Origin: Catajapyx aquilonaris
Taxonomy: Eukaryota
DNA: 33,576 bases
Direction: 5' to 3'
NCBI GenBank assembly: GCA_000934665.2
Contig: JYFJ02004362.1
Coordinates: 1-33,576 of the forward strand
The stretch's first letter is position 1, and each line of letters starts with the position of its first letter. The position numbers and the translations under genes are program-made. This document shows, piece by piece, positions 944 through 28,309 of this stretch. The notes under the pieces were generated by a model. That model ran no database searches. It saw only the letters and a program-made list of their open reading frames with translations, and was not told the DNA's origin.

Positions 944-986
944 ATAAACAGAAGCCAGTTACAAGAAGAAAGCAGTAACTTATTAC

Positions 987-1888
987 CTTGGTGTAAAGAA
1001 GGGCATATCCCATGTGTTTCCAAGTGGTGCACTATCTGGAATGTTGCAGAAGATGCAGTAGAATGCAACCATATGCAGCAGGAATCCCAACAGCACTATC
1101 GGATCTCTGCCATACTTGGTGGTTCTCTTGCCCAGCAGTCCAAAGCAAGCCCCACCCAGCACTTCTCCAATCCCAGTGAAAATCCCAGACAACCCAACCA
1201 ACCTCTTGGGGCTTTCAAATTGCTGCGTAAAACCCAAGGATGACCCGTACACTCCGGAAAAGAAACTGAGTTCAACTCCAGTGTAGAAAAATGTTACACT
1301 CAGCAGCATCATATCTTTAGTAACAAATAGTTTCATAGAACGGCGTAAGGCTTGCACAGGTCCTTCCGGTGGAATGTTCTTATCCAGATCTTGTGGCGGT
1401 GGTCGAAGGATGACTAAAAAGATGATCCCTAAGATGGCTACTGCCAGCAGCACGCCAGTTGTGAGTTGCCGTGTTTGCGCTGGAATTGAAGTTTGTCCCT
1501 GGAACTCAAAGAACACAAACAAGTTCCCAATAAAGAGAGAACACTGCAGCATGGCCCAAAAGAGGCCAGAGTTCCGACTCATTGTGTCTGGGGTTGAATT
1601 TCGGGTCAGTGCACTCCCTTGGGCTGTCCATATCATAGCTGCTCCTAGTCCAACTACAACAGAGGCCAAGTAGAGCAGCCATGTTTTAGGCCAGAGAAAA
1701 GATGCAATGAAGAGAGTGTAGAATACGGCTCCCACGACCATGGATATTCTCTCCCCAACCACAGCCACCATACTGGGCGCCAGCCAGTTGGCCAGAGCAA
1801 ATACGATGTAGATGATAGCCAGCGATGTGTAGCCATCCCCTTTGAATTCGCCATGGGTGTCACTTTTGATGCTGTCCAGCATGGTTTG
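987..1888 (-). CDS. MFSD11: UNC93-like MFS protein MFSD11, coding exon 2; remaining 3' exon(s) lie left of the window
   Basis: Acceptor tgtttccag|CAA. Translation QTMLDSIK...GDGYTSLAIIYIVFALANWLAPS...GLGAAMIWTAQG...RNSGLFWAMLQCSLFIGN...YTGVELSFFSGVYG matches MFSD11/UNC-93. Donor CCAAG|gtaata. Confidence 0.93.
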
Positions 1889-2269
1889 CTGGAAACAATG
1901 AAAGCATGTGACAGAGCAAGTGCGTTGCAATGATATTGACAAGCGCTGTCAAGCAATAGGTGGAAATGAATGGTGCAAGGACATCCTCTATGTTGTTTAG
2001 TGTACTTTGGTGATGTAAGCATTATTGCCAATCACTAACTAGCAATATTATGAGTACTGGAGAGGATTTTGTATGAAAGTGATAAGTTTAATAAAATATG
2101 GTATTGCTCTTATGCTGTGCACAGCTGACATAACTCTGGTCTCTCTCCAAGTACGAGATAGACTTCAATGACTATAATGCATTTTTCTCACTCTATTCTC
2201 AAGCATGCATCTATTGAAAGACTGCACGCCTCAGTGTTGCCTAGCTAATGTAAACTGTGAGTGACCTAC

Positions 2270-3314: not shown

Positions 3315-5513
3315 CCGGCTTGCTGTACTTCCTCGCATACTGGAGGGTGTACTGTACTGTACAATAACTGCCACACTGCATGTTTTTTTAACCCAATTGT
3401 TTAAAATACACGATATCGTTCATTATACTCGGTAGCACACTCATATTCGTATTCTGCATTAGCGTTGTGCAGATAACGCGATATTGATTAGATTAGCTTC
3501 ACAAAGAAACGTAAAAATATTCCTCCCTACTTGGAAGTGTACACCTTGCGGTTGCTATTCGAATAGTGGATAATATTTTGTTGGTATTAATTATCAGGTG
3601 ACGCACGTGTTCATGTACATGAAGATTACAGGACCTCATATTTATCACGCCTTGAGCTGTGCAGCTTAACATGGCATTGATAAGCATATCCAAACTACGT
3701 AGGCTACTTCGTTTCCTTGCTCGCACCGTCTATAAATTCAACACTCATAGTGGCATAGAAGATTGGCTGCTGTGTTTTATTTATTATTGCACAATTAGGA
3801 AGTATCTCATTGGTCGCAGTGGTACATGCGAATGCAGGAACCCATATTTACTACATGACTATAACACTGTCTTCGCAGAATTAACCCTGCTGGGATAAAT
3901 TTCATACTTATTAGACAATCCGGCCATATACTGTATTGTCCCTGATGAAAATACTCATCAATTGGAAGAATTTAATTAATCACCTGAAGTAATAATCAGT
4001 GCGGCACTTTGGGATGGGCGGTATTTGTGATTATACGGAACTTTTATTTACAGTATTAGGTTTTCAGAGGTATGCAAGTAATCGTGTCCTCCGGCAACTC
4101 AACCCGGGTCCCCTATAGGCTGCTACTGTACGGAGATATATAGGTATGACTGGTTTAGGGGAAATGAACCACAATGGCAAGTGGCCATATGGTGCTGGAC
4201 AGACCTCAAATCCATTAAAGGAACTCCCGTATGTATAGGCACACGAGCTGAAACGAAGTTGCGATCTTTGAAAGGCAATAGTCAAGTCCAAGGAATCGTA
4301 AAAGAAACCCGCCTATAAGAGTCCGCCATAAATTATATCAGGATTAGTAGGTTTCTTCTGCGAATGTGTGGTGAAAAGTGACTGGACTCTGCTATCTGAC
4401 ATCTACTACTACTGTACAAGACATCGTGACCGCAATATTATGCTAATCATTGATCTACTTCGACAGTAGAGTCTAGAATAATGAGAGCTGATGCGAATGA
4501 GTAAGACGATAATATTGTAAATGTGTGAAGGTTGTCGTTATTAGAGACCTGTCGATAAGAAAAGGTGATAAATTCTGCTCCATGATACAGAAGAACACTT
4601 ATTGCGCGGATCCTTTCATGCGTCATTCGCCTGTCTCTTACCACTCATTAGCCGCTTCATAATACACAGTCAAGTTATGCAATAGACTACTTGGCTGATA
4701 ATGAGACCACGTGGCTGAGACGATCATTAATGCAATTATTAGCCTAGTGGTTTTTTAAATTTATTTTTTTAGCTGCTGGTAGAGATGTAGGATTGATTGA
4801 ACATTGGTACAGTATAGGCTAAGTATACGACATCGATTTGTGTTTACAAGTCTCTTGCCGTAGATAACTGTAAAAGTCGCATGTAATTCATAAAAACAAA
4901 GCAAACTGGTGGAATCATATGATGTGCTCAGCCGAAATTAATTGAATCACATATCCTAAATGAATCATTGTGCTGAGTTTGATCTAGATCCACTTTCCGT
5001 ATAATAAGCTCACGATATAAGTCTAGTAATAACTTTAACATCCCTAACATGCAGAGTAGTTTTATATGCTGAAGCTGTGTTTATGGATACTGCGCAGAGT
5101 GCCTATGTAATTTACTCGTACTTCCCATTGAGGGGAAATGCTTGACGCTGCCGTATTATTTGCTGGCAAGCTGATTTTAGTACAAGCAAGTACATATAGG
5201 CTCTATATAATAGCTAGTTTCTAATAAGAGTCAGTGAATGACCCTTCGCCAGAAAAGTGTGTCAGGGGAAAAGTTCCTTGCGCAGTTCTCCTGGTCTATA
5301 TACGAAGGTCTTGCAGGCTGAACTCGTCGCAATCGGAGGGCACAGACTTATGTGCACTTTTCGAAATACCCGTAGCCTATATAGGCTATACCAGGCTATA
5401 CGCAATGGGGCAAGCCCACTATGATTATCATAGATCTTATAGTATCTGATGCATTAGTAAGGTCGATGCGGGGTCGATGCATGATATGTACGGTGTGTGC
5501 ACAGTAGTCGCAG

Positions 5514-5514
<1 letters not shown>

Positions 5515-5595
<81 letters not shown>
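5515..5595. repeat. (TA)n microsatellite
   Basis: Directly visible. Confidence 0.98.
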
Positions 5596-5599
<4 letters not shown>

Positions 5600-6163
5600 T
5601 GGCATACCTCGCTGACTCACCATCGCACAGCGCGCCTTTACTACAAAAAGACAACAAAAAGAAAAATAACAACAACGACAATCTGGCAACTCCTTGGGCT
5701 GGCAACTCTGCGCAGGGCACGCCGCCTAAATAGCAAATGGTTCGGCTGCTTTTTTCTAGACGTTATTTTTAAAATAACGGCTAATAGAAGCTGCTTATAA
5801 ATACCACATCGCCATTGCCATAGCCCGTTTACTCCGCCTTATTAAACCGACAGATCCGGGACAGATTATGGCCCTTTGGAAAAGTCGCAGGCTGGTCTCA
5901 AACCACATTTAACATTACGGAATGCTACATTCCTGGAGCTATTCCACGAGAGTTATTTAGTAACAGCTACGCTTTCCATCCATTTCCCCGATTTTTCCAC
6001 TCGCTCCCGCTCACCCTCCCCCCCTGCTCCCAACCCACCTCCCTGCAGTGACTAAGAAGTAGTCTGATCCAGTCTTGTCTCCTTTTACACCGCAAAGGCA
6101 CTCCGCCAGGTGGCAGGACGATCGAGCGTCAGAAGAGAAGAAGAGATTTACATTGTGTGTTTA

Positions 6164-6800: not shown

Positions 6801-7516
6801 TTCAAGGTCTTTGCCTATCACTATTTACTCTTGCTATATCACATATCCAGAGAACGGAAATCATGATCGATGATCCATAAACATGCAAAATCACAATGAT
6901 GATCAATTTAAAATTATGATAGCCTGGTTGTGAAACTGCCAAGAAAGATTTTCTATACCCGTTTTACGCCGCTCCATTTTACGGCGTTTCACATTAAAAG
7001 GACGTGCACAAGCAAAAGAACGCGTGAAACAAAATAATGTTTTGTTCAAGCTTGGCGGGTTCATGCATTCCGCGATGCAATCCATGATGGCTAACTGCTT
7101 CACCGTGCTGCCAACTGGCGGACAATATTCACTGCATCCAGCCAGACGTGCGGGTTAGAGGGACTACACCTTTTAGCCTCCCCACCACCCGTGTTCCGTC
7201 CCTCGCTCCTCCCTCCCACTCCCCTCCAAAACGCGAAACCCTCCGCCATGTTGGCTTCCCCCAAGTTGTAGTCACTGCGTCATTTGGGTCGCGTCTCCTC
7301 CCGCGAGTCTCCCTTTATCTGTTCTCGAGTCGCAGGCCGTGTGATTTTAGCAGGGCAGAGTCCCAGGGCCGCCCACCACCACCACTCCTCCGCCGCACTT
7401 ATAACCATACCCCGGCACCGCACCCTGCGTTGCCCTCCCGTTTCGCGCGTGATCCCGTAAGGCCCGCGGTCGCCCAACCGCCGGCCTCCATCCCACTGGT
7501 AACCGTGGTGTCCAAG

Positions 7517-7698
7517 ATGAGCTACGGCCGCCCCCCGCCCAACATCGACGGCATGGTGAGCCTCAAGGTGGACAACCTCACCTATCGGACCACCCCCGAG
7601 GACCTGCGCAGGGTCTTCGAGAAGTACGGGGAGGTCGGAGACGTCTACATTCCCAGGGACCGATTCTCCAGGGAGAGCAGGGGGTTCGCCTTTGTCAG
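7517..7698 (+). CDS. SRSF2: Serine/arginine-rich splicing factor 2 (SC35), exon 1, N-terminal part of the RRM
   Basis: [61 protein letters not shown] is near-identical to the SC35 RRM. Donor AG|gtcagt. Confidence 0.97.
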
Positions 7699-7806
7699 GT
7701 CAGTAGGGGCCCGTCCTTCCTTCCTTCCTTCTTTCTTTTTGTAAGACTCATGGGGACTGCTTGGGCCATGACTCTAATGAGGATTACTCGTCTACTCCCA
7801 CAACAG

Positions 7807-7935
7807 ATTTTATGACAAGCGAGATGCGGAGGATGCCATGGATGCGATGGATGGCCGCATCCTGGATGGCAGGGAGCTCCGTGTGCAGATGGCCAGGTAC
7901 GGAAGACCGGCCTCGCCCTACAGGCGCTACTCACG
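7807..7935 (+). CDS. SRSF2: SRSF2 exon 2 (end of the RRM and linker)
   Basis: Acceptor caacag|A. Translation [42 protein letters not shown]. Donor CG|gtatgg, phase 2. Confidence 0.96.
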
Positions 7936-8364
7936 GTATGGTCACCCTCCTAATCCCACTTTCCATTTGCATTTTACATTTGGTTGTGGGTGCCATTGTG
8001 CACAGGTTGGGCATACCTGAATATGCAATTAGACAAAATATGTTTATATTAATGTGAGCTGCTATTGCCATTTGAAAGTGATTCAACTCATTGCTATAAA
8101 CACCAAGTTAGGTGAATTTGTATAACTCAGTTTTTGTCAAGCTTTCACATGTGCAGTGCACTGGATGGATTGGTTGGGAACTGGATTGGTAGAGGCTGTC
8201 TTTCAAGGTTTTGGTGTGTGTCATGATAACAGGAAATTCATGAAAACCTAAAACTATTACTTATGTCTCCAACTGTGAAGCTTGGGTTTGAAACTTGCAA
8301 AGGATCCCTTCTGGGATCATTCTTTCATTGAACGACCACATCTTTATAGAAGGTCTTCGTAATA

Positions 8365-8968
8365 TGAGGGCTGTACTAAAATGATGGACACTTTATTTTT
8401 TTGCCACAAATTCATGGAGGTCGGGAAATAGGCACATATTATCGATAGAATTCTTATGGAGCCAACTGGACTGGAATCTTGGCCTGGAACCAGGGAGGGC
8501 CTGGAACCACTCCAGGCCCTCCAGGAGCCACTTTTTGGAGGTGCAGTGCACCCACTCCTGGACAACTGCTTGCAGTCAGCAGCTGTCAATGATGTCCTTG
8601 AAATGGCATCAGAGAATGGTTTATTTAATGGATCCGAACAGTTGAAAATTCACTGGTAGCCAGGCTGGGAGAGTACGGTGGGTTTGGAAGTACCCAAAGA
8701 CGGTTCCATGAAAAAGCCCTTTTCCAGCGCCATTTCAAGGACATGGTTGACAGTTGTTGAATGCATGCAGTTGTGTGGGAGTGGGGGCATCTCACCTCCA
8801 AAACATCATTCCTGTGGGGCCTAGAGAGGTTGACACACCCATGACTCCTATGCATTCAGCTCCAGGAGGGTTCTATCGGTAATGTGTGTGTATCTGCTGA
8901 CCTGCAAGGGCCCTGTATTTGTGGCAAAAAAAAATCAAAAAGTGTAAATGATTTTAGAACCGCCCTCA
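8365..8968. mobile_element. Tc1/mariner-type fold-back MITE in SRSF2 intron 2
   Basis: TA|TGAGGGC...GCCCTCA|TA termini resemble the mariner TA|CGAGGG end after CpG decay. Imperfect inverted arms cover almost the whole length, e.g. 8533-8607 vs 8729-8803 match at 62/75. Confidence 0.8.
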
Positions 8969-10150
8969 TAATATGAGATGAGAAAGGTAAACTCAATTGG
9001 TCTTCTCAATCCATCCATATAGTAAAAATCCACATTTGAAATTCACAATTTTGCAAGGTTTTCATATTTAAAATTGACACAGAAGCCGGAAACATTTGGT
9101 AATTTCTATTGAATGTTTTTCTTTCAAAATGAAGTTAAAGCTCCATTTCTTGTTGTGTATTATTCGAGAAGGTCCTGTTTTATGAACGAAGGTTAACGCA
9201 GGGAGATGGAAAACAACTGGCTGCCAGGGAAGTTATTGATCCAAGGTGGCATTTTTGAGAGCACAGGTGGCAACCACCTCCAGTGGCATCACAATCAATG
9301 GCAGGCCAAGCAGCCATCTTGGGTGGCGTTTTAAACTGATGGGGTGTGAGGGCGGACTCTGCGTGTGGACTGGACTGGGCGCTAACTACATGCAATGTGT
9401 TGACGCAGGAGTTCATGCGAGATGTTATTGCATGCAGTAAATACTGCAGATGTAGGGCATCTATCCGAGGTTGCAGTGGAAATCTTGAGTATAAAGTAAT
9501 ACAGATGGTCACAAAAGCAAAAATCTTAGCATTCCCTTTGCATTGGCTCTCCGGTAACCTCCCGGGCAAAGTTGGACTAGCTGCAAAGAAAGTACGCTAG
9601 TAGGAAGTAGCATTCTCAGTGGGTTTGAAAACTTGCATCTTTTTGCATCTCTCAAAAGTGCAGTTTCACTTTTAGCAGATCTAAAAGACATTGTACCAGA
9701 TGCAGTAAGGGAGGGTTGCAGTCAATTCGTCACAGGTCACTTTGTGCCCAAAGGGATGATCATATCAGCTGCTGCCAGCTATCAAATGATTTGAAATGGG
9801 CACTAGGAGTACTTTCTATAGGTTACTTTATATGGTGTCTGTTTGCTTATTAATGAAGACTTTTGGTGGATGTCATAACAAATAGAAAGGGGGGGGGGGG
9901 GGGGGGGNGGGGTAAAAGAGTGACTATTTCCCAAGATGTAGTGTAATGGTCAGAATGTTACATAATTGCAATTAGTTAATTGTTTATCGGTGATTCTAAA
10001 ACTTACCAATATATACAGGGTGTTCCAAATTCGGGGGTCACTTGATAACTGATATCATCCAATAGCAGTTATTTTTGTTTGTTGTGCCCGTAACCATGTC
10101 CCCCATTCTATAACTACCGCTACATTCGACCCACCTGCTTATCTTCTACC

Positions 10151-10396
10151 CAGGGTAACCTCCATGAGTGCCTCCCCCACCTAGAGAGGGTATTGTCTCT
10201 CCGACATATTGGACCTAAATGCTAAATCAGATTGGATCTGCATGCAGTGAAAAAATGTCCTTGAAAAAAAAATTGGATGCTTGCCAATTTCCTATCCTCC
10301 AGCATGCAATCTAGGTCCAATATGGACGCCCCATAAGGACTACGTGGAGACAATACCCTGGTTAGGGTGGGGGAGGCAACCATGTAGGGGACCCTG
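10151..10396. repeat. Imperfect inverted repeat, probably a MITE remnant, in SRSF2 intron 2
   Basis: 10151-10222 pairs with about 10306-10396, sharing the blocks tgcctcccccacc, agggtattgtctc and catattggaccta. Confidence 0.7.
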
Positions 10397-11130
10397 CTTC
10401 TACCTAAGTTCAGAGCAGTCCTGTAGGGTTGCCACATGTCTGTGAAGCCCTGAAAAGCGCTATCACGCAGCCACATGCTGCAAAACACCCAGTAAAGCCC
10501 CCTAAGGTGATTAGAGGGGAGAGACCATACCGTACTATTGTAAGACCATGGTCCTGACTTAATAGATTGGGATGTGCCGGGAGAAAGATTTTTTTTGCAG
10601 TGAAAAGTAATTGAATATTTCTCTTTGTATGGGGATGGATAGGTGTCAACTGATGCTACATATTTTTAAAAATGAACTCAGTCAATCCATTTTGAGTTAC
10701 TATGCCAGGACATAGTATTCATAATATTGGTAAATTTTAGGAGAATCACCCATATATGCTAGCATATGACAGGACTCTTTCAGTGGGATTTTATCTGGCC
10801 TTGAACTTTTACAGTACTCCTGACAATTTTTGGAGTGGGCCTTTCATTTTATTTCAAGAAAGATAATGAATTCTGGTGGAAGTTGTGCAGTGTAACATGG
10901 CATTGAGAGAATAGCACACTATCTAGAATCTTGGCTAGAGAAAATAAGTTTTCACAGGCTCAGCTTATAAGGAAGAATTTTCTCTGTGGCGTCAAATTAA
11001 TGTTAAAAGATTCTCATAACTTTTGTAGGCAATATGAGACTTGATTGTCTCACAATCAGTAACTATTTGGTGCTTACCAGTGTGGCTTTGGCTTGATTTG
11101 GATTTGGGTTCTTTGGGCCTTTCCTTCCAG

Positions 11131-11614
11131 ACGCAGCAGGAGCCGAAGTCGTAGCCGCTCTCGCAGGCGCTCATACAGCCGCAGCCGAAGTCGGTCTCGA
11201 AGTCGGGACAGGGGACGAAGGAGTGAGCGGGACCGGGAGGGAGGGAGGGGTGACAGGGATAGAGGGGATAGGGACCGTGACAGGGAGAGGGAGAGGGATA
11301 GCGGAAGGGGAGACCGCGATAGGGGAGACCGTGACAGGGATAGGGAGAGGAAGAGGGGGGCTGGTGGATCCCGGTCTCGGTCACGAAGTCGGGAGGGTGG
11401 GGAGCGAGGAGTTGGGGATATCGATGGGGAGAATGGCCACCATAAGAAGGGGATGAGTCGAAGTCCTCGCAGCCGTAGTCCCCGCAGCAGGACTTCAAGA
11501 AGCAGGAGTGGAAGCAAGAGTCCCAGGGACTTGGAGAGGAATGAGAGGAAGAGCGACTCCAAGGGGAGCTCCCGCTCACCTTCCCGCTCTAGGTCCCGTT
11601 CCAAGTCCAAATGA
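11131..11614 (+). CDS. SRSF2: SRSF2 exon 3 (RS domain with RD/RE insert), stop TGA at 11612-11614
   Basis: Acceptor ttccttccag|A is in phase with exon 2. RS dipeptide repeats. Spliced CDS totals 795 nt, a multiple of 3. Confidence 0.93.
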
Positions 11615-14600
11615 TGTGGCAGAGGGCAGGGGAGGGGAGGGATTGAAGAGGAAATGGAAAAGGACTGGGTGAGTACAATGTGTAACTGCAGCATTATGAC
11701 TTCTGCTGTACTTTTGCAGAACTCAATATGCTAAGTAGATAAAGAAGCTCATGTGAGCTTGCCAATGGAGAGATTGAGCTCATTATTATGACTAAGTCTA
11801 TTGGTTGGTAGCGATCAGTTCAGTTTAGCCCTGTGGCACTGAAGTTGATGGCCAGGAAAACTTGCATCCTAAAATAATGCTCAATGTCATTAAGATTGAT
11901 ACTTAATTGTGGTAATGAGCAAGAAAAGTTATGTGTCATGGTTATTTCAGGGGATGAAGATGGAAAGGAATGCAGCCTATGAGGATTGATGAAGGAGAGT
12001 TCAGTCAAGAAGGATAAGGAAGAGAAGGGAACGTGAATGTGGGAAATGGTGTGGATGGGAAGGGTTGAAATCGGGTTGGGTGGGATTGGGGGGAGGGGGG
12101 GGGGGTGAAGGGGGCATTTCTAAGGAGCCACTGCTTTAGCATGCGGTGCGGTTGCAATTGCAGTGTGCAGTTTGCAGTTGGCGAGGTGCTGCCCAGGTGG
12201 TGTGGTTGGTGAGCAGGAGGTTGGTGGAGTGGAGGTGTTTGGAGTGGTGGAGAGGAGGAGGAGGTGGAGGAAAAAGGAACGGGACAATACTTGGAAAAAG
12301 GTACTGGGCAAGCACAGTGGCTCCTATACAGAAAACTTTAAAAAAATAACAAGTTGAAAAAAAAAGTACGAACTTATTACACTCGTGATGCTTGTTATGT
12401 TCAGGTTCATTTCATGATACCCATTATAATCGTAGCTTCTTTAAGGATCATGATCCTTTTTTGCCTTTGATAGTTGTGTGTATTTCTTTTGTAGCTCTAG
12501 TTTAAGGCTGCCAGTTTCTGCCACCTTATATGTTTACCTTATTCACCCTGTCATCCCTTTTCAGCTGACGTCATTTAGCATCCTTCACATTCTTCTAAAC
12601 TCCCTCATCCTTGCCCTTTGACCCATCCAATATTTTATTGACCCAACATTGTCTTTGTTTCCTTTCATGGGGTAATGCAGAGACTGCAAGGTAGAGAGTA
12701 ATAAAAAAAAGGTGACTGAAGATAAAAGGATAAATGATGTATTGAAGCAAGATAGAATTGGTGTTTGATTGTTGTGAGGCAAACTTGGGAGGTGAATAAC
12801 GGGTGGCTTTTCTTTTCTTTCTTCCATTTTTGGCGTGCCGCAGGTGCGGTTGGCAGTAAGAGAGTCGGCTGCTGCCGCTGCTGGCCGTTGGTGGCGGTAG
12901 TTGCGGGTGGCAGTGTGGCTGAGTGGCAGAGATTGCGGGTTCCTGAGAGAGAGAGAGGGGGTTCCTGATAGTAGCAGAGCTGCCTGCTGAGCACACAAAC
13001 ATTCACACATAAGACACTCCCTTTGTCATTAGTTGGGTTGATTGGATGAAGCAGACCAAGCACACACAATACATGCAAACGAATGGAGGACAGAAGCAGA
13101 CTAATCAAGGGGGAGCAGAGCAGCTTGGGAGGCAAAAAAAAAAAAAAAAAATCTTTGTCATAATACCTTCCTACCCTGTGACCTGATGTTGAGAGACCAA
13201 GATGACAGGTAGCCAATTTAACTCATTTAGTGGGGGGTGCACATTGTGCTGAAGTTGGAGGACACTTTGCCTACTTGTCTTCTTGGTTGGTCTTCCATCT
13301 GATCTTGTTGGGTTGGGAGGGCAGCATATTGTGGTTCTGTTACCTTGACAGGTGCAGGCCTCTGACCCAGCTGGCAGATTTGGGGGAGAGCAGGAAGAGA
13401 ATGGAAGGAAGGCGGGGGTGTCTGCTGCATGCTGGCAGGGGTTTTGCTGAGGGGGCGCTTGCAGGGAAGGCTGCTGCCATCAGGATGCCCGGAAGTTAGA
13501 TAAGCAACTGGCCACCCACCCGATCTTTTCTTTAAGAATTTTTACAGGTGGAGTGAGAAGGGTAGGCCATGTTTGTAGGTGCTGCTGGGAGAAGGAGTGC
13601 AGACATGATGGAACATGTAAGCCTTGAGGGAGTGAACCTGCCTGTCCAGTCATGGTTGCTATTGCTGACCCTGGAATTATGTACCAGATTTTGCTGCCGT
13701 GGCAAGGAGGGGCAGACCCTTTATGCAGGAATGCAAAGCTGCCAATTTGCAGGTGATTGGCAACCAACCATTGGAGCTGCTACAAGGAATTCTCATTCTT
13801 ACACTTCCAGCAAAATAGGTGCTTTTTGGTAGCATGAAACACACCAACAGCTATTTTATTTCATGATTGTGAAACATCATGCTAGAAGTTAGATTATCAC
13901 TGGGTGCAGAGATGTGCAAGTCGATGTCAAGCTACACTATCAGATGTATATTTTTTTTTTGTGTGTTTCTGAGAGTTCACCATGGATTGAAATTGACATT
14001 CATTTTCCTACAATCGTGAGACTGGAAAAGCTGCACAATGTTGAATGGTGACAATTTTCTGTGGGTGTGAATTGACATTTGCAATGCTCACTGTTTTACA
14101 ATCCATGCTTTCCAATAACACTTGCCATTCAATGATTTTGTGGTACGAGATTAGAGGGTGACCAAACCTAAGTTGAGGCCCATGTGTCTGATCTTTCAAT
14201 TTTTCCGAATTAGTTCTCTTGCAGTGATGTGATGTATGCTGCAGTTACAGAACACTGACAATTACCAAATAATAAGGAAACCAACCTGGTCATCCAAGTT
14301 ATTAATGTGACCAGATGTCCAGTTTTTCCCGTACATGGAGGTTCAAGCGATAGAATGTGTCACTGTATAGTGTATTCGAAAAGCAAAAGAGGAACACAAT
14401 CGACATGCGAGCCTCTCTTCCTCCATTACTTCCAGTAGTGTTTTGTAATTATCTTTTATTTTATTAATTTACTTCGTGGAATAGTGCCATATGGAAAATG
14501 AACAAAATTAATGTCACATCTAATACATATATCTGGACGTATATCTGTCTGATCCTGATGCAAGTCCATACGGAGGCCTCCACATAAGCCCCAGGGGAAT

Positions 14601-17378
14601 GATAGGGGCAGTGTTTTACTGGGAAGGTCATAAGCACATTGGACTTTACCTCCGAGGNCCCCCCCCCCCCCACCTCACTCTCAATACTTTTGGTATAAGT
14701 AGGATGATCAGGTTAATTGTTTTTTTTTTACTGTTCAGTAATTTTTATTTTATATAATTGCAGTATACAATCAAATTATCACATTATCATTGCAAGAAAA
14801 CCACATGTGATAGGAAAAATGGAAAGTAGATCTGAAACCAGGGCCCTTGGGTTAGGTTAGGTGTCTCATTAAATCCCATACTCCAGAAGCTTTGCAAATT
14901 TTTACAGGGTAGTGCAATTAACATCAATGGAAAACAAGATCCAATGACAATATCGTTGTGCCATGTGAGTGGCGATAATGTCCCTTTCTTGGCCAAGGGC
15001 ACCACAGAGCTGTTTTAATTCTTTGAAACATTTACTAGGGCACACTGTGCAGTGGTGTGTAACCCTTTGCTTTCTGACAAATGGGGGCATGAGATATGTT
15101 GACCATTATTGATGTAGCCTACTGCTGCACAGGCAAGAAGCAGTTTCATGTCCTGAACATTAAGATGTTCTGAAGGTGGGCTTCTGGTGTAATTAATAGT
15201 TATGGGATGTCTTGGAGGTAAGTAATGGCAGCAGTGTGAAGTATCATTGTGAGCATAAAGATGAAAAGAGCTGGTTACAGAATGATGGGAGATTTCCCTG
15301 GAATGCCAGCAGGCATTGGTACAGTAGTACGGGACTACTAGTAATCTAGTCACCAGAAATTATACCTTGTGGCTTTATTAGTTGTCTTCCCTGCAATTAA
15401 AAAAACCGAAAGTTGGTTCCAGCTTTTGCAATTATTATGATCTCGTACATTACTCGATTTTTTAAACATTACCGTTCAGTCACCTCTACTATTGAGAAAT
15501 TGAATAAAAGTAATCCTGATCCTATTTTTGTCTTTATATTTGGGGCATAAGGGTTTCCCAGTTCTTTTCAATTGTGTCAGATGGGAAGAATGTGTGTCAA
15601 GTTATATTCACACCAGTGTAATGTGAGCCAAAAAGGGTGGCAAAAGTGTAGTCACATTACCCGTGGTGGTGACTAGCGGAAGCTGGTGGAAGGCATGAGG
15701 TTTTTTTTTTGTTGTTGTTTGGGTTATTATTTTATTGGTCTAAATTGGTCAGCTCCTATTTCTTAGATACTTAGAAGACTTATTAACAAGCAAGAGGTGA
15801 GGAACATCCTAATCAATGTCAACTGGTACAGTATAAGTCAGAAAATGCTCACTTCTCTGCAATGAGAACGCAGGAACTGGTGATTGTGAGTGCAGACAAA
15901 TTGAGACCTGACTGCTAGGGCTACAGGCAAAGAGGAGGTAACTGCAATTTCCAAGCACCTACAGGTTTTGCAGAAATAAGGTGGTATCTGCCAAGTGTGA
16001 ATAAATTTTGAACTATCCCTCAGAGATGAATTGGTGATTCAATGGCAGGTGAGGGTAATAAATCATCATTAATCCCAGTTAATTTGAGAAATAGTTTAGT
16101 GACTTCCCAGAAAACTCAATATTTGTGATAATGAGACAGACCATCAAGACTGGATTGTCAACTGCAGTGGGCAGCGCATAAATTACACGAGTCGCTTCCC
16201 CACTCCAGCTCTTGTAACTTGGTTAAGGAATGTATGGGCAACCAACATTAAATGCAGTTGGAAAACAATTTGGGACTGCTGGGTAGTTTGTTGCAAGAAA
16301 AATTCAAGTGAATTAGCATTGTGGAGAATACATCAAGGCCTCTTCAGGTATGAATCAACAGTTCAAAGGTGTATCCATGTCTATAACATCACAAGTGAAT
16401 TTGATTCAACCACTCGTATCTTGCACTTCTGATCAATTATTCAACTACTTGCCAATTTTTCTGCTGATGGCGTCTGTTCATATCCTTGGAATGTGACCTG
16501 CCCAGCCGTGGTGAGCCAGGAATCGTGGTCAAAGGCAACAGCTTCACCTATAGTTCCCATTCACAAATAGTCTGACCCACAGTCTCACCACTGCACTGCC
16601 CAGACAGGTAAGTTCCCATAAATTAGGATATGCCATGAATAGGTACCCATTATGCAGGTTGTTCCACTGCCTTGACACCTGCAACACTTGGGCAGGGTAA
16701 AATGTAATGTACCATTGAAGTGAGTATTCCATCTTGTCACCTCACCTCATTGTAGGAGACTGAAACTGTGGGATGAACCACTCCATATTGATAAACATAC
16801 TTGTACATTAAAAATTCCCTTGTATTAAAAAAACTTGGGGATTTAATAATTCTTTTCAATGCTTCCAACCTGAATTCCACTCAGTTAAAATATACACTCT
16901 TTCATGCACATCTTAAGTTCCCAATTTCCCTTTTAGTTTCTGAAGTAAGAGCATTCTAGTACAGTACACAAGGTCTTTCTATATTTGTTCATTTTTGAGT
17001 GAAATAGGTTTTCCAAAATAAAGTATTAACACAGTTCGTAAGCCAAAGGATCACTTTATACTGCACAAAAAGTGGGACCAAACATCTTGGGAATCTTGAT
17101 ACTGGGTTGGGTTGTGGAAAGAATAGGGATGTGGGAGTCAAAGGATGAAAAATTCTATATACAGATAAAATTTAAGTGTCTTCAACACTTTTTCTCGCTT
17201 GCTTCTCTTGCTACCTGGCAGCCAGCCTCAGAGTGAGGTTGGTTGGTCCCAACTGCTCAACGCACCACTGGTGCCAGCTGGACACTGCCGGGAGTTGCCT
17301 CTGGCGCGCAGCCATTCCTGTAGACCAGATAATCGGAGGGGGGCGACCAGGGGAAGGGGGCCTGGCCGCAGCAGAGGG

Positions 17379-18149: not shown

Positions 18150-18592
18150 CTACATCATGTGAAAGACAATGCTCTTTAATGCTGGCCAATATTATATGCC
18201 AATGGCTGCATAATTAATCAAGCTCACCCTGCAGCTGAACACCAAAAGTTTTTTAAAATTGTAATGTGATTCCAGAAAACTTCCTTGTTCAAACAAAATC
18301 AAGTAATCAGTTTAACTGTGGCTGAATTTGAGATAATTTATGAAATGAAATGGAATGCCAGCGAAGTTTTGAGTGCTTGACAATGTACAAATGCAAGCAC
18401 AATTATTCAGTGCTAGTATTATTACCATTCATACGTGAAATGTCCCTCACCAATAAATGTGGTTCATTTCAAAATGATATTACTTCTTATCCTTATAATC
18501 CGCGACTTTTGAGAGCTGATCCCATGATGTGTCAGAACAGAATGGACAACTTCAAATGTCCCCGTTTCATTACTGTCTCAAGCATAACTTAC

Positions 18593-19117
18593 AGCTGCAC
18601 AGGCATCCCACACAGCCTCCTGCAGGCCAACAAGTCGTGGCCCCAACAGGTGAACCCCTGGCGCCCACACAGCACATGACTCGTGTATCCAAACCTCCTT
18701 AGGCCCATCTGCTGGCACCGGAGAAGGTGGAGGAGTGACAGGGGGAAGAATTGGAGGGGGTGCAGAAGAGGTTGAAGGTGCCCCAATTGCCACCAACTTT
18801 GATTTGGCAGGCTTTGTGGGCTGCTCTTTGCCTGGTTCTTGCGCTATGAAATAAGGTCCAAACAAGTCTCCAAGTCCATCTGCATGTGATCCCCGCCTAC
18901 AGAAGATACAAAGCCAGGACCGGTCGGGTGTGAAAGCATCGTACTTGGCAGCCAATGTTGATGCAAACCCAACACGTGATGCCTTCCCCCGGGCATCTAT
19001 CTCATGGTGGAATGATGAACTTGGCTGGGGCACCATAGGAGATGCTTGGACACCTCCAGAAGAAGACACTGAGTCAACTCTCCTGCCACCTTCATCCTTA
19101 GCCAGTGCATTCACAAC
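18593..19117 (-). CDS. RAI1: RAI1/TCF20-like exon, first part of the extended PHD (zf-HC5HC2H)
   Basis: CIFC...LGDLFGPY...EVWIHESCAVWAPGV...LVGLQEAVWDA matches the RAI1/TCF20 ePHD. Boundaries ag|GTT and GCT|gtaagt. Confidence 0.92.
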
Positions 19118-19536
19118 CTGCAAACAGTTAAATTGGGAGCTCAGAATACTACATAAATATAGATTCACAACAGTCACTAATGGAAAACCATCAAGATGTT
19201 ATTTTAAGCTGCAGAGGCACAATCTGGGAATTAGAAAACTTTAATGCCAAGAATGGAAATTGAGTGCCACATTTCCTTCAGATTAGATATTGGTTAGATA
19301 CAGGTACTGTGTTTGTATTGAGTGTATCATGCTTTTAGCTTACTTTAAACTAAATTGCATCTCTCTCATCATTGACTACCCCTTGCAAAGGGAAATGTGA
19401 TGATAATGTTGGAAACCTCGCCAGAAGCTAATGAAGTCACAGTGATATATAAATTAAAGCAAATGAAAGTTCAGCAGATAGAAAACCTCTTGTCAACAAG
19501 GAAACTTCTGATAAACAAATAAGTCAACCATCTAAC

Positions 19537-21002
19537 CTGGCACAACCCTGATTGATCCAAGCGGATGAATGGACCCTTCCATGGCGTTCCTGGTTTAGCA
19601 GGAGTGCCTACTGGTTCATCCATTGAGTCATCCTCCTCCTTCCGCTTCTTTTTCTTTTTCTTCTTGTCAGCCTTTGTGGGCTTACCAACACCCTTCTTCT
19701 TTGGAGTAACGCTCTTGCCCTTTTTGGACATTGCAACAGGTGATAGAGCACCTTCTACTCCAATTCGTCTCTTCTTAACAGGAAGTGCAAGTGCTACTTC
19801 CTCCTCACTTGACTTGCCACTCTTTCGTTTCTTCTTCTCTTTCGGCGAATCCTCTTCTCTCATCAATTGGTCAGTTTCTGGAGTGCCTTCATCATCCTGC
19901 CCCACATCAATACCTTGGAACATTTTCTCCAGCTCACTCTCCACAGCCTGGAATCTATCTTCAACAACCACACCACCAGTCTCCTTCTTTGAGTCACACT
20001 CTTTGTCTTTTTCTTTTTCTTCTACTTCAGTCACTGGAGTAATTTCAGTCAACTCAGTTGGTGCCTTTTCTTCAGTCATGTTTGGGACTGGATCCACTTC
20101 TTCAGTCAGAGTCTGCGGAGCTTTTTGTTCCGTCACTTCTGGGTGTGGTTCATTAGGCTGCACAGGGGGAGGGGGAGGGGGAGGGAGAGGTGTTGGCGTG
20201 GCTGCATCACTGGTGATTGTTGCTGGCAGAAGCCTCTGGATAGGGTTATCAGGCTTCCGTTTGCGGCGAGGTTTGTCTGCAATTGGTGAAGGTGATGAGC
20301 AAGCTTGAGAGTCCTCTGGTGATGGTGGGTGGATGGTAGAAGGAGGTAATCCTGCTGGTGGTGAGGTTGGGGATGGCTGTTGAAAAGCCTCCTCCTTTTG
20401 AGGGGCAGGACCACCATTATTAGCAACTGATGCAGGAGGAATAGGTGGTGGTGGTGGAGGTGGAGGTCTTGGGTTTGGCTGAAGTGAGGGTCCTGCCAAT
20501 GTCTCCAGCAGGGCATCAACCTTCCTGGCGCGTCTTAAGTTTGCCTTTGTTCTGGGCATATGAGGTGGAGGGGGATGGATGGGGAGGTGAGGGGGGTAGG
20601 AGGGAGGGGCAGGAGGATGGGAGGACTCCCCATTGATCAGTGGAGGGCAAGGGGATTGAGGGGGGGAAGGAGATAGGGTAGGAGAATCTGCAGCCACCAT
20701 CCTCTGAAGACTCATCAATGGAGATGGATTTCCACCACCTCCAGCCATTGAAGTTGTTACTGATGTGGAAGAAGGTGAACTGCTTCCTCCTCCTCCTCCT
20801 CCTCCTCCTCCTGGTGCTGCTGCTGCTACTGCTGTTGGTGCTCCACCACCTCCTCCAGCATTGCCAGTCACCCCCTGTTGTTTCCACCCCCATGCTGGTA
20901 CTTGTGGTGGCCCTCCCCATCCACCACTTTCTGGTTGTGGAGATGGTGCTGGGACGTAACCAGATGGTGACCCACCATAGTGACCACCATTGCGTATCTC
21001 AC
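19537..21002 (-). CDS. RAI1: RAI1/TCF20-like large exon (Pro-rich, acidic, and basic NLS-like segments)
   Basis: Acceptor ccttttcag|GT, donor CAG|gttaga. 488-codon open frame containing SPLMSLQRMV, KKKKKKKRK and GPFIRL. Confidence 0.88.
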
Positions 21003-21286
21003 CTGAAAAGGCCATAGAATTGGTATAGATAATAACTTATCATGCCTGCATAGCATGACCTATAAAATATTATCAAAATGGGAAGGCTAGTGGTTAACCT
21101 TACTCCAAGGCCTATTAAATGTTAAAGGGACTATTAATTATTTCACTAAATGTCATGCAAGTTTTTGTTTGGTAGAAGTGTGAAATAATGATCTGCAAAA
21201 ATGCCGCTACTCAATATTTTTATTGGACATTTGAGCATTACTTTTTCAAGGAATTGCTTTTTTGTGCCTTTGAGGGTAGCAACAGC

Positions 21287-21610: not shown

Positions 21611-22645
21611 GCAACAGCATTGAACAAAAATCCTTCAAATTGTTTCCTATTGAGGATATCAGAGCTTCAGTCTACATTTAGGGCTGGTTGCGTCAAAGTA
21701 AGATTAAGGCTGAGGAAAGCTTATTTTGTCCTGGGCATTAATTGCTGGCAATAATGAACCTCACAAGTAGTAACTCAATTAGTAACATGTGAGTTAAGAA
21801 TCTGGTTCAAGAATGAACATTTTCCTAGGAATGAAACTGTTTCCAGAAACCTTGAATTGACATCAACACGTCACTTCTCTTCTCCTGAATCTCCACCTGC
21901 CTCCCAAACTCTGGTTAAAACAGGTTGTTACAAAATAATATAGAAGTAGTAGCTACTGTTTAAAACAAAGTTTTATTGATAAAATATTTGGCGCAAGAAA
22001 CCATCTCACAAAATAAGTAAGCATTTACTGTCCCAATTTCAAAATTTATTTACTTCTCCTTTCTAAAAATTTCCCTTAATTCACAGGTAATGCAAAATAT
22101 CCTGGATAATCAGGATATTTTAAAACATGTACAAGCAGTGTTATAAGTTTACACTATATTTTCTTCTAACTTTATACATAATTCCTTACTTAGTTGAATC
22201 AAGGTCAAAAATAACGTTTCTCATGGTTGCAGTTTGATGACCCAGTTACTAGGCTTTTTAAATCATGTTCATTTTCCATTATAATACATTTAACTTCAGA
22301 AAAGCTACGTAAACAGTACTGGTAATAAAGTAGCTACCATATTCATGAAACGTGTTCAGCCGCTTAAGTAACCGGCAGATAATTATTTCTGGGACTTGAC
22401 TCAAAATTCATTCTTGAGTGGTGAACAATGGCAAGGCTTGCCTGCGTAGGTGAGTTTCCTGGTGTGGCAGGATGGATAATGCTTTCCCCATCACAGAAAT
22501 GTTATTTTCTAATATGATTTGCCACCAACCATCTTAAGATTATTCAGCCAGGAGATTTAGTTTTCAACTATATGATTCAGCTAATTCTAAAGTTATTACC
22601 TGCAGACTATAGGAGTAATTCCATGCATTATCAGAGTGAGGTTAC

Positions 22646-23047
22646 CTTGGTGAGGATTAGATGCAGGTGGTGTTGGAGGATGGTGAGGATGAGGAGATGA
22701 TGCTGCCCATGTAGGAGAAGACATGTGTGCAGTGGTTGTCGGATAACTCCCACCACCCCCTGGCGACATTGGGGACATCGGTGACATTGAGCCTCCTGCA
22801 GATGGGTGTTGCTGCTGGTGGTGGTGACGCATCATGGCTGCAGAGTGTGGGTGCATGTTCTGCTGGTGTGCAGGGGTCAGGTGCTGCAGATGCTGTTGGT
22901 GATGCTGCTGCTGGTGGTGCTGGGAATAGTTCGGGGAAGAGGAAGGCCACACATGCACCGGGCTGCGGTATGAGGCCTGCTGCTGTTGCTGCATCTGGTG
23001 CGGGTGCTGGTGCTGATGTGGGTGCTGGGAGTGAGGGTGCTGCCCTC
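22646..23047 (-). CDS. RAI1: RAI1/TCF20-like exon, His/Gln/Pro-rich low-complexity region
   Basis: Acceptor gattgcag|GA and donor CAAG|gtaacc, phases 1/1. Open Q/H-rich frame. Confidence 0.82.
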
Positions 23048-23233
23048 CTGCAATCACCAGTGCAAAGACATGCCAAATATAGCTGACTTATGCTCAATTT
23101 CCATGTTTGTGTGAGGTTAAGACGGAAGTCTACAAAAACCTTCCTATTGCTTGATGGGGTTGTTATATGGAATGGTAGGAAAGGTGGGCCCTACCTCTTG
23201 GATTGAGGTTCCTGGAGACAGTCTAAGACTAAA

Positions 23234-26711: not shown

Positions 26712-27304
26712 GTCTGTTGGGAAACCAGTGCTTGTCTTTTCGCAAGCACACCTTGTGCTGCCTTGTGTACTGGCTCATGAAGGAATTGAAGTGATTATTC
26801 ATGCTGGAGGGTCATAGATTGCATGCAACTCCTGCATATTTTACCAAGAGGTGATACTACCAGTAGCCTACTTGGCAACCTAAGATCATATTCTATATCT
26901 ACAGGATCAGTTCTGTAGTATGATTGACTAGTACTCAGCAACCTTGCACAGAGTCACCAAAGTATGGCAAATAAAATGCTTGGACGAGAAATGGTCTAGA
27001 ACTCGAGATGAGCTTAACTTGCATTGCGTCAGGTATATTCCATGCTTGGTGTCATGACCGTATGTAATGTAACTGTAGATTCTACATACATTCTTCATGG
27101 GTGATGGGATATAGAGTGCATTGTTTCAGTACGATCTGGAAGTTGCATGGATCACGTCATGCTTGAGCAGGCTTCCACCTATCACTCATGAGAATATTGT
27201 CATAATTCTGGGCTTTTTTCAGTGATATACATACATACCTGTATTTTTTAACTATAAGCAACACAATTAAGAAATTCAAGACATTCACATACTTACATCC
27301 TCAG

Positions 27305-27778
27305 GTACCTATCCCAGAATCGTCATGAGGAACTTCAAGAGCTCCTCTATGATGGAGCCCTGACATTTCTTCAAAATGGACAAGCATCAAGTGGTGGGGA
27401 CCTTTCTGTTCTCATGGTGGATGTCTTGCAGCAGGGGAAGGCCATCCCCAATGAGCACTATTTTGAACGCCTATCGCAGCTGTTCTCCTTAATGGCTCGC
27501 GAATCCCCAGAGAGGCAGACCTTCCTTGGTGCTGCCCTGAAGTGGTCGTCCTCACAAACCATCACCCCACAAAACAAACCTCCGCCCCCTCTTGGACACC
27601 CTCAACTACACCGTCTCCTTGGATTGGTCTTGTGGAAGGAGAAGAGCTACCCGGAAGCTAGGTTTCACTTGTTGCATGCAGCAGATGGACACTCCTGTGC
27701 CAAGCTCCTTGTTGAATTTCACACACAGAAGGGTTACCCTTCAGAGGTTGACCTCTTCATTGTTCGTGCTGTTCTGCA
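27305..27778 (+). CDS. GET4: GET4 exon 2
   Basis: Acceptor cctcag|G. Translation YLSQNRHEELQELLYDGA...SGGDL...ALKWS...GHPQLH...EARFHLLH...GYPSEVDLFIVRAVL. Donor CA|gtaagt. Confidence 0.94.
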
Positions 27779-28309
27779 GTAAGTTCTTGTAATATATGGG
27801 TTAATGCATTTCTGCACTGCCACCTTACCAACATGGGAAGCAAGTGGTTGTGTGCAACTGAAATGTGGAGAGGAGCCTTGCAATGTTAATCAAGCGATAT
27901 GAATAATACAAGTTAAAGTGGGAGTCATTATTTTTGTCAAACGAGAGGGAGAGTTATTGGAACGCATTGTATGTTGTTTCTAATAAGTTACAACATGAAT
28001 GTAAAGACTGTATTTTAGACTTCTTAAAAAGAGTTGTTGTCACAATGTGATCTGGCAACACACTTTCGAGCATGACGGGGAGAATTTTCTTACTTCATCT
28101 TCAAGAAGACATAGTCCTATTGATCACCGTAACCTGGATTCTCTCTGTCAGGTGTCAACTATAATAGACATGTACAGTACCACTAGACATGTGAGAGAGG
28201 AAGAGGCAAATGCTTTGTTGATTTAAATGTGAGCGTACCTCATGCAGTGCCATTTTACTTCTGACAATTACGTAAGATTATATGACTGATATTTCACTAC
28301 CACATGGAG

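Follow-up and report, generated by a model that had tools for sequence, protein, structure and literature searches.

The SRSF2 mRNA of an arthropod, Catajapyx aquilonaris, loses an intron from its 3'UTR just behind the stop codon. We identified this intron in contig JYFJ02004362.1, of which positions 1 to 33,576 were analysed and are referred to here as the window. At the level of sequence, the region behind the SRSF2 stop is laid out like its mammalian counterpart, with a candidate retained intron and enhancer-type words. We tentatively read the arrangement as an SRSF2-type homeostatic 3'UTR splicing module through which the gene may autoregulate by way of NMD, and we hold the chance of this to be a little under even. 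An earlier first-pass annotation of the same DNA had proposed a related module. Its observations were partly confirmed and its interpretation was partly supported.

The gene and the intron behind its stop codon

Judged from its sequence, the gene is an SRSF2/SC35 orthologue, as the first-pass annotation had called it. Coding exon 1 matched the RRM of human SRSF2 (chain 2lea_A) with an E value of 1e-30, the next non-SRSF2 family following at 3e-12, and was recognised by Pfam RRM_1 (E 4.8e-12). The RRM is completed by exon 2, which matched RRM_1 positions 46-70 with 20.5 bits, slightly below the gathering score of 20.7. Since the loose end of RNA contig 1 corresponds to window positions 7905-7934, exon 2 is joined to exon 3. 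Translation places an RS/RD-rich tail of 160 aa behind the single N-terminal RRM, and the RS-domain part, used as a query, gave no match in a homologous-protein search. For exon 3, RNA contigs span 11139-11252 and 11398-11667. The features that enter the argument are as follows, with a slash marking a splice boundary here and below.

7517 to 7698, + strand: coding exon 1 of SRSF2, with the opening portion of the RRM, ending at donor cag/gtcagt
7807 to 7935, + strand: coding exon 2 of SRSF2, with the remainder of the RRM and the linker (Pfam RRM_1, RNA contig 1)
11131 to 11614, + strand: coding exon 3 of SRSF2, with the RS/RD-rich domain and the stop TGA at 11612-11614 (translation, RNA contigs)
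11615 to 11668, + strand: start of the 3'UTR, 54 nt, 52% G, four G-runs at 11624-11641, ending at the used donor
11669 to 11950, + strand: 3'UTR intron A, 282 nt, GT..AG, 23% G (RNA contig joint)
11951 to 12300, + strand: U2, internal UTR exon-like block, 350 nt, 46% G (RNA contigs, composition)
12145 to 12154, + strand: first copy of GGTGCGGTTG, containing UGCGGUU, which fits UGCNGYY
12301 to 12843, + strand: block B, 543 nt, 19% G, candidate regulated terminal intron
12843 to 12852, + strand: second copy of GGTGCGGTTG, lying across the candidate acceptor AG/G
12844 to 13837, + strand: downstream UTR, 48% G in its first 117 nt (RNA contig 3)
13851 to 15410, + strand: more RNA-covered sequence, in contigs 13851-14646 (depth 12.3) and 14720-15410 (depth 26.3)

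The RNA evidence consists of assembled contigs of one public run (X1), which is not on record as RNA by type but behaves as such: contig 1 has a loose end that belongs to exon 2, and depth is zero at the end of intron 2 (10900-11086). Contigs assembled in this way drop rare variants. Past intron A they cover 11951-12030 and then 12273 onward, with a gap at 12031-12272 that includes the first motif cluster, and coverage ends at 15410. The stretch from 13851 to 15410 is probably distal 3'UTR, its membership in the same transcript being assumed.

The donor GG/GTGAGT, with its GT at 11669-70 and the exon ending at 11668, lies 54 nt past the stop and is used. An RNA contig of depth 38.3 joins 11668 to 11951 (11667/8 to 11950/1), with 81 letters on its shorter side, and the acceptor taken by this donor is 11949-50 (ttatttcag/GGG). 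The first-pass annotation had thus named the right donor at the right distance from the stop, and had sent it to the wrong partners (12140, 12495, 12565 or 12844). Because the spliced form was the only form assembled in this run, at a depth like that of the neighbouring contigs (28 and 44.3), splicing of intron A looks constitutive, unlike that of a rare unproductive isoform, and its product appears to be a stable mRNA. The junction at +54 is a borderline case for the 50-55 nt rule, and since it sits at this edge the main mRNA should be at most weakly NMD-sensitive. RNA continues far past 12140, so there is no early polyadenylation upstream of that position that would void the idea of a module further downstream. 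Readthrough of the stop codon was considered and rejected: the frame stays open for the 18 codons to the junction and for 12 beyond, which a rough hand estimate for such T-poor sequence puts at about 1 in 5 by chance. TGA-T is not known to be a leaky stop context.

Block B and the enhancer words around it

The published consensus for SC35-dependent enhancers is UGCNGYY (PMC3152345), and GGTGCGGTTG includes it. The motif was picked after the sequence had been seen. Its matches stand well above shuffle expectation in both G-rich blocks. U2 holds five of them (at 11971, 12147, 12166, 12173 and 12187) against 0.16 expected in 11951-12300, a count reached in 0 of 300 shuffles. Past the candidate acceptor three more follow at 12845, 12870 and 12873, against 0.38 expected in 12844-12960, and three were reached in 1 of 300 shuffles. 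Intron A, block B and coding exon 3 have none. This counts in favour of the first-pass interpretation. Proteins other than SRSF2 could also bind words of this type.

The first cluster begins 7 nt past 12140, and right after its GGTGCGGTTG copy TGCAGT occurs three times with a 7-nt period (12159, 12166 and 12173). GGTTGCAATTGCAGTGTGCAGTTTGCAGTT follows 12140 and GGTTGGCAGT follows 12844, and the acceptor-plus-motif element has a degenerate second copy at 12894-12914 (repeat D3). The two motif signals that the first-pass annotation had itself stressed fared less well. GGTGCGGTTG has only two exact copies in the window, at the two places it had given, and a repeat of this kind is expected by chance: dinucleotide shuffles of 11615-12960 gave at least one repeated 10-mer in 240 of 300 cases, and block-wise shuffles in 257 of 300. 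In the G-rich blocks SSNG occurs 11-18 times per 100 nt; G-poor blocks and flanks have a density of 2-4, and the window as a whole has 5.3. These counts equal the mononucleotide-shuffle expectation (z -1.2 to +2.1), so the density reflects a G content of 46-52% and carries no motif signal. GTTGCAGT, allowing at most one mismatch, showed a weak excess across the window (47 matches, 31 expected). RNA structure in 12100-12960 was no better than in shuffles (z +2.1). Because Rfam gave only one sub-threshold match over 11000-15600 (E 0.17), we take the region to host no snoRNA or miRNA.

Between the two clusters lies block B. Its ends resemble the splice-site consensus, running from AAG/gtactg at 12300/12301 through a pyrimidine tract to gccgcag/G at 12843/12844. 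These sites, like the stop, the donor at 11669 and the weak acceptor ctgctttag/C at 12139/12140, are present where the first-pass annotation had located them. Block B also contains an AATAAA at 12700-12705; after the stop, no other copy occurs on the + strand before the one at 15503. In the assembled RNA the block is kept: contig 3 (1564 nt, depth 44.3) passes through it without a break, extending from 12273 to 13837. The assembled contigs of this one run hold no joint between 12300 and 12844, and splicing of block B is hypothetical.

If block B is the regulated element of the proposed module, then SRSF2 in excess would bind the enhancer clusters and activate the weak sites around it (12300/12301 to 12843/12844). 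With block B excised, U2 would become an internal UTR exon, the proximal poly(A) signal would be lost, and a second junction would come to lie approximately 404 nt after the stop. RNA without block B would be less stable, through NMD or another decay route, or less productive, and SRSF2 output would fall.

Other SRSF2-like loci and rival readings

We compared the window with 80 SRSF2-like metagenome loci. None showed DNA similarity to the window UTR (best E 0.083), and the one vertebrate-like locus among them (L027) neither matched it nor contained GTTGCAGT. Within the set, no mRNA-like contig could be paired with a genomic contig of the same species at 88% identity or above. The 3'UTRs of other SRSF2-like genes do carry comparable motif clusters, a result in favour of the first-pass interpretation. 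An unbiased 6-mer count over 29 non-redundant mRNA-like SRSF2 3'UTRs (29.7 kb) returned TGCTGT (46, 7.4 expected), TGCAGT (36, 6.4 expected, antisense 5), GCAGTG (31, 3.7 expected, antisense 5, present in 15 of the 29 UTRs) and TTGCTG among its top words. The combined pattern TGC[AT]GT or GCAGTG occurred 113 times on the sense strand of these UTRs and 22 times on the antisense strand, with 12 occurrences in 5'UTR and CDS. In 21 genomic loci, 15 sense clusters (11 loci) lay downstream of the stop as against 2 antisense, while upstream there were 4 sense and 2 antisense.

The clusters are often found just past an AT-rich stretch that ends in a pyrimidine tract and AG. In seven contigs (L029, L030, L039, L049, L037, L064 and L036) the largest step-up in G falls within about 15 nt of the Y-AG that closes the AT-rich stretch, and in all of these except L039 a motif cluster follows within 120 nt after the Y-AG. 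Several mRNA-like SRSF2 contigs thus present the same picture as 12843/12844 in the window. Counted over clusters, an acceptor-like site lay at most 60 nt upstream of 5 of 18, compared with 15% of random positions, and by this strict definition the window's own clusters score 0.

The strongest rival to a regulated module is that a long UTR simply contains a constitutive intron of the ordinary kind. Intron A would then always be removed and have no regulatory role, or only the general boost that splicing gives to expression; block B would be plain UTR, and the clusters would serve other RNA-binding proteins, localisation or stability. We regard this as a real possibility, if a doubtful one. It accounts directly for the RNA, in which the spliced form of intron A alone was assembled at a depth like that of its flanking contigs and block B is unspliced, and a junction at 54 nt can be seen as the tolerated edge of the 50-55 nt rule. 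It is also at ease with Drosophila, where NMD is reported to be independent of exon junction complexes (PMC2689934), and with the consensus itself, which is absent from 16 of 35 orthologue UTRs and shows a modest excess when all 35 are pooled (54 observed, 31.3 expected, antisense 32). What it leaves unaccounted for is the confinement of strand-specific SC35-type words to two blocks flanking a segment that is bounded by splice sites and bears a poly(A) signal. The same words recur in other SRSF2 3'UTRs together with the transition from AT-rich sequence through Y-AG to G-rich sequence, and the layout parallels that of a human gene that has been dissected experimentally.

The model of the first-pass annotation, taken exactly, has donor 11669 spliced to a cassette at 12140-12300 and/or to 12495, 12565 or 12844, yielding NMD isoforms. 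Its sites exist, and a UGCNGYY cluster lies close behind its cassette acceptor. The cassette was not seen in assembled RNA, where much of it falls into the contig gap at 12031-12272, and an assembly that drops rare variants could have missed such isoforms. Against this model, 11668 is joined only to 11951, a single contig passes unspliced through 12300/12301, 12495, 12565 and 12843/12844, so that the supposed terminal intron 12301-12843 is retained along with the rest, and 12140 is preceded by G-rich, exon-like sequence whose pyrimidine tract is poor. We consider it improbable. Equally improbable is that the G-rich blocks and clusters are functionless by-products of slippage or local duplication in low-complexity DNA, as the 7-nt periodicity of TGCAGT, the triplet-like GCTGCTGCCGCTGCTGG, local duplications of 24 nt and 57 nt, the window-wide over-representation of TGCAGT (58, 24 expected) and the chance nature of the 10-mer repeat might suggest, since words related to these lead the strand-specific 6-mers of 29 independent SRSF2 3'UTRs, are rare on the antisense strand and in 5'UTR and CDS, and form clusters downstream of the stop in the sense orientation.

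Relation to known SR-protein circuits

SR-protein genes are a textbook case of self-limitation by unproductive splicing. Mammalian SRSF2 (SC35) reportedly autoregulates through unproductive splicing in its 3'UTR, a finding attributed to Sureau et al. 2001. The resemblance of the proposed homeostatic module to this system is one of layout. Both belong to the same gene family and splice inside the 3'UTR. The mammalian pairing of an internal UTR exon with a retained terminal intron that carries a poly(A) signal has its candidate counterpart in U2 and block B, where use of the AATAAA is putative, as are excision of the block, SRSF2 dependence and NMD. SC35-type enhancer words, here at the level of motifs, open the exon that comes next in both, set among G-runs and UG-rich sequence. 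The human SC35 gene has its proximal poly(A) site within the terminal intron that its stable forms retain (Dreumont et al. 2010, PMC2831310), its enhancers fall in the terminal exon's first 60 nt with the core GUUGCAGU, and hnRNP H and TDP-43 antagonise SC35 there (PMC2831310). The arthropod gene differs in that its ORF is spread over three exons, not two, and in that U2 is included in the main form.

A spliced intron close behind the stop of an RRM-protein gene also recalls the proximal 3'UTR-intron genes described in 2020 (PMC7310861), and human SRSF2 is among the genes with a conserved proximal 3'UTR intron (preprint 10.1101/677666). Such introns can still confer EJC-dependent NMD sensitivity (PMC7310861). 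The arthropod distance of 54 nt lies just outside the under-50 nt class of that study. No account of an SRSF2 3'UTR intron in an invertebrate turned up in literature searches, which does not prove that none exists. An invertebrate comparison is with C. elegans rsp-4, the SC35-type gene, and with rsp-6. Alternatively spliced, PTC-containing mRNAs of these SR genes are stabilised in smg mutants (PMC5765348, PMC2265522). Restraint by splicing and NMD is thus a feature of the worm genes and a putative one here. The worm event lies in the coding region and gives RRM-only ORFs; unlike the event in arthropod SRSF2, it does not concern a 3'UTR intron.

SRSF1 has 3'UTR-intron NMD isoforms, and in SRSF5 fungi and animals share a conserved poison exon or intron retention (PMC7764535; Lareau and Brenner 2015, PMC4379411). 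These cases share with ours the general principle that SR genes limit themselves through unproductive splicing and that such events can be ancient, and they differ from it in gene and event. According to the abstract of PMC4379411, most human SR-gene events arose independently. The opening part of its Results deals with SRSF4, SRSF5 and SRSF6 and follows only SRSF5 far back in evolution, and a term search of the text gave no 'SRSF2'.

A broader reading is that the SRSF2 3'UTR switch is ancient and not a vertebrate invention. Its parts would comprise an intron close behind the stop, a UTR exon internal to the transcript, a terminal intron that is retained and bears a poly(A) signal, and clusters of SRSF2's own enhancer word UGC(N)GU where the next exon starts. 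They would then be common to arthropods and several other invertebrate lineages, and would work even where NMD is thought to be EJC-independent. Taken whole, we think this rather unlikely. The intron and layout of the arthropod gene make it testable whether the SRSF2 feedback loop is ancestral to bilaterians, and the word clusters that recur in many other SRSF2 3'UTRs add to that question. Through this system one could also examine the working of such a loop in animals where NMD may ignore exon junctions.

The SRSF2 gene and its neighbourhood

At 7517-11614 on the plus strand the window carries an orthologue of SRSF2/SC35 with three coding exons. The human SRSF2 RRM (2lea_A) matched exon 1 with all 60 residues aligned (E 1e-30, vs 3e-12 for the nearest non-SRSF2 family), and Pfam recognised RRM_1 in exon 1 and, 0.2 bits below the gathering score, in exon 2. 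Upstream of SRSF2 and head-to-head with it (divergent) lies an UNC-93/MFSD11-type ORF whose best named relatives come from insects and crustaceans (51-62% identity), for which reason the animal is taken to be an arthropod. MFSD11 is the divergent neighbour of human SRSF2 as well, and the pair may represent conserved microsynteny.

Features of the SRSF2 locus
983-1948, minus strand: large exon of the UNC-93/MFSD11-type transporter gene (PF05978, E 4.9e-87)
7517-7698, plus strand: SRSF2 coding exon 1, RRM part
7807-7935, plus strand: SRSF2 coding exon 2, RRM part
11131-11614, plus strand: SRSF2 coding exon 3, RS/RD-rich tail, stop TGA at 11612-11614
First UTR segment, 54 nt, plus strand: 52% G
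11669-11950, plus strand: intron A, 23% G
11951-12300 (350 nt), plus strand: U2, 46% G
12301-12843 (543 nt), plus strand: block B, 19% G
Segment after block B, 117 nt, plus strand: 48% G

G-rich and G-poor segments alternate along the 3'UTR. Block B has a donor-like start and closes with a long pyrimidine tract and CAG/G, and it holds the sole plus-strand AATAAA from the stop to 15503. No unusual RNA fold was found in 12100-12960 relative to shuffles, and no Rfam family in 11000-15600.

Further genes and ORFs of the window lie at 27258-27782 (plus), 32064-32714 (minus), 18578-21036 (minus) and 22596-23087 (minus). Among them are exons of GET4 (E 1.5e-40) and of the C-terminal part of SHMT (E 4.2e-62), along with long ORFs rich in proline and in glutamine/histidine that have no Pfam match, one of which includes a cysteine/histidine-rich stretch. 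Long (TA)n microsatellites occupy ~640-960 and ~5400-5800, and four N bases adjoin homopolymer runs (9880, 14638).

Splicing of the 3'UTR

The first-pass annotation had proposed an SRSF2 autoregulatory module in this 3'UTR, acting through unproductive splicing, and all the motifs it named were in place on re-reading: GG/GTGAGT (its GT at 11669, which puts the end of the exon at 11668, 54 nt past the stop), ctgctttag/C at 12140, AAG/gtactg at 12300/12301 and gccgcag/G at 12843/12844. Evidence on their use came from Logan contigs of one public sequencing run (X1), its kind not on record, in which 61% of the words sampled from 11131-13200 were present; its contigs were examined across 10900-16500. 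X1 behaves as RNA, since the final 230 nt of intron 2 had zero depth and the loose end of the exon-3 contig was window 7905-7934, in exon 2.

In one X1 contig (depth 38.3), 11668 was joined directly to 11951, leaving out the 282 nt in between, which are bounded by GT..AG, and no contig retaining intron A was reported across 10900-16500. The proposed donor at 11669 is therefore used, its partner being ttatttcag/GGG (11949-50) and not 12140, 12495, 12565 or 12844 as had been suggested. A second contig, of 1564 nt (depth 44.3), ran unbroken from 12273 to 13837, unspliced across the supposed cassette donor (12300/12301) and all three later acceptors (12495, 12565, 12844). Further contigs covered 13851-14646 and 14720-15410, a gap was left at 12031-12272, and no contig of this one run joined 12300 to 12844. 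Rare isoforms, transcript ends and levels are beyond what contigs can show. The assembled RNA form is the one with intron A out and block 12301-12843 in. The safest statement is that in this arthropod SRSF2 possesses a real 3'UTR intron, starting 54 nt past the stop, that is removed efficiently.

The surroundings of the verified donor recur twice in degenerate form, at 12272-12290 and 12297-12315, and the acceptor-plus-motif element at 12837-12857 is found again at 12894-12914. Past the TGA, the reading frame meets no stop in the 18 codons before the junction or in the next 12 (11612-11668, 11951-11989), so a readthrough ribosome would cross it; by a rough hand estimate, chance is not an unlikely cause in such T-poor sequence. 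Sense-strand runs of the G-quadruplex type lie at 11624-11641, with four G-runs in 18 nt just upstream of the expected exon junction complex position (here about 20-24 nt before 11668), and at 12073-12107, a long G run with few interruptions; the X1 contigs break in the stretch containing the latter. A short repeat at 14555-14603 also occurs in other X1 transcripts (the sole place where contigs 5 and 6 match).

Putative enhancer words in this and other SRSF2 genes

Two signals on which the proposal had leaned did not stand out from composition. The 10-mer GGTGCGGTTG is present at 12145 and 12843 as described, and an exact 10-mer repeat arose in 240/300 dinucleotide shuffles and 257/300 block-wise shuffles of the 1346-nt stretch. 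SSNG density in the G-rich blocks was 2-6x that of the G-poor segments and flanks, a density that matches expectation from 46-52% G alone (z -1.2 to +2.1). The 10-mer contains UGCGGUU, and UGCNGYY is the published SC35-dependent splicing enhancer consensus (PMC3152345). That consensus was chosen after the sequence had been seen, so the motif test is post hoc. With the motif chosen in this way, U2 held 5 matches vs 0.16 expected (0/300 dinucleotide shuffles reached 5) and 12844-12960 held 3 vs 0.38 (1/300); intron A, block B and coding exon 3 held zero.

A metagenome contig scan with exon 1 matched 602 stretches, 409 encoding a relative, and the best 80 were kept as SRSF2-like loci (handles beginning with L). 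Among these 80, none was close to the window at the DNA level, and no same-species pair of mRNA-like and genomic contigs was found. A contiguous RRM-plus-RS ORF was present in 36; dropping L042, genomic by context, left 35 mRNA-like contigs. Three of the 19 contig ends inspected (L002, L030, L036) terminate 14-18 nt past AATAAA. Over the 35 UTRs UGCNGYY showed a modest excess (54 observed vs 31.3 expected, 32 antisense) and was absent from 16. After removal of L075, and of L001, L024, L025, L033 and L038 for UTR similarity to a kept contig, an unbiased 6-mer count over the remaining 29 placed GCAGTG, TGCTGT, TTGCTG, TGCAGT, GTGCTG and GTGCAG at the top, beside homopolymers. Matches to TGC[AT]GT or GCAGTG numbered 113 sense and 22 antisense in these UTRs and 12 in 5'UTR plus CDS; they were tightly clustered, mostly 400-700 nt past the stop, and all but one of the UTRs under 500 nt had none. 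Of 21 genomic loci with RS exon and stop, 11 carried a total of 15 sense clusters past the stop, against 2 antisense ones in that position; upstream there were 4 sense and 2 antisense clusters. Since several of the 21 come from related worm-like species, they are not all independent.

A motif-blind scan for G steps placed the largest G rise within ~15 nt of a Y-AG closing an AT-rich stretch in seven contigs (L029, L030, L039, L049, L037, L064, L036), the first four being one clade. A motif cluster followed at most 120 nt after the step in all except L039. Candidate donor-like AG/GT sites were seen by eye ~74-105 nt past the stop in L029, L030, L049, L036 and L037. A stricter automatic test found an acceptor-like site upstream of 5/18 clusters, vs 15% of random positions.

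Several loci showed features of their own. In the insect-like genomic L004 (2199-2210) and L007 (1918-2040), donor-like sites lie 1 nt (TGA G/GTAAGA) and 9 nt (GGCAG/GTAACC) past the stop; L007 continues with a pyrimidine tract plus AG, a short exon-like piece, a CAG/GTACTT donor and an AT-rich stretch, ending with ccacag/GCGCGGGTGG and a motif cluster. As read from sequence, this arrangement appears to resemble the window layout. The related worm-like L040, L042, L044, L047, L059 and L076 share a well conserved block in the first ~90 nt past the stop (..GTTGCAGCTGTGGAGTAGTAACGTTTGCAGTGGTGTCTCCGCAGTGGACA..), and their protein C-termini differ despite it. The mRNA-like L018, whose ORF stops early in the RS domain (..SRRRSRSLKIPASLS*) and whose 3'UTR matches L013 at 80%, could represent an isoform with a PTC or else a copy with a frameshift. 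Several contig 5' ends in L002, L029-L036 and L064 fall at or near a GCCATTTTG/GCCATCTT-type word, and CCGCCATGTTGG occurs at ~7240-7255 of the window, about 270 nt before the ATG; these may be a shared core-promoter word.

A candidate self-limiting switch

In the human SC35 gene the opening 60 nt of the terminal exon are taken up by SC35-dependent enhancers (core GUUGCAGU), at which hnRNP H and TDP-43 act as competitors, and the retained terminal intron contains the proximal poly(A) site (PMC2831310). A preprint also names human SRSF2 as one of the genes whose 3'UTR has a conserved intron close to the stop (10.1101/677666). The window runs in the order stop, short UTR, spliced intron, internal UTR exon, AATAAA-bearing retained segment and enhancer-word exon, matching the human layout point for point; the likeness put forward here concerns layout rather than sequence homology. 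In structure and word content the long 3'UTR resembles the experimentally defined mammalian autoregulatory region. The C. elegans SR genes rsp-4 and rsp-6 are NMD targets through coding-region events (PMC5765348, PMC2265522), unlike the 3'UTR intron here. In the text consulted, Lareau and Brenner (2015) treat SRSF4/5/6, and the term 'SRSF2' was not found there (PMC4379411). In our literature search no paper describing a 3'UTR intron in an invertebrate SRSF2 came up; supplements, outside the search, might list SRSF2 orthologues.

We tentatively take a self-limiting SRSF2 switch, which would be centred on block B, as the most likely function. Against it count the single assembled isoform, the missing 12300 to 12844 joint, the X1 gap over the first motif cluster, the post hoc choice of UGCNGYY, and the arthropod host, because Drosophila NMD is EJC-independent (PMC2689934). 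The main rival, which we consider somewhat less likely, is an ordinary constitutive UTR intron accompanied by unrelated regulatory words. The original observation is partly confirmed, and its interpretation as a feedback switch partly supported. The value lies mainly in the verified 11668 to 11951 junction and the cross-species pattern of motifs and retained segments, which together open the idea of an ancestral SRSF2 feedback loop to testing.
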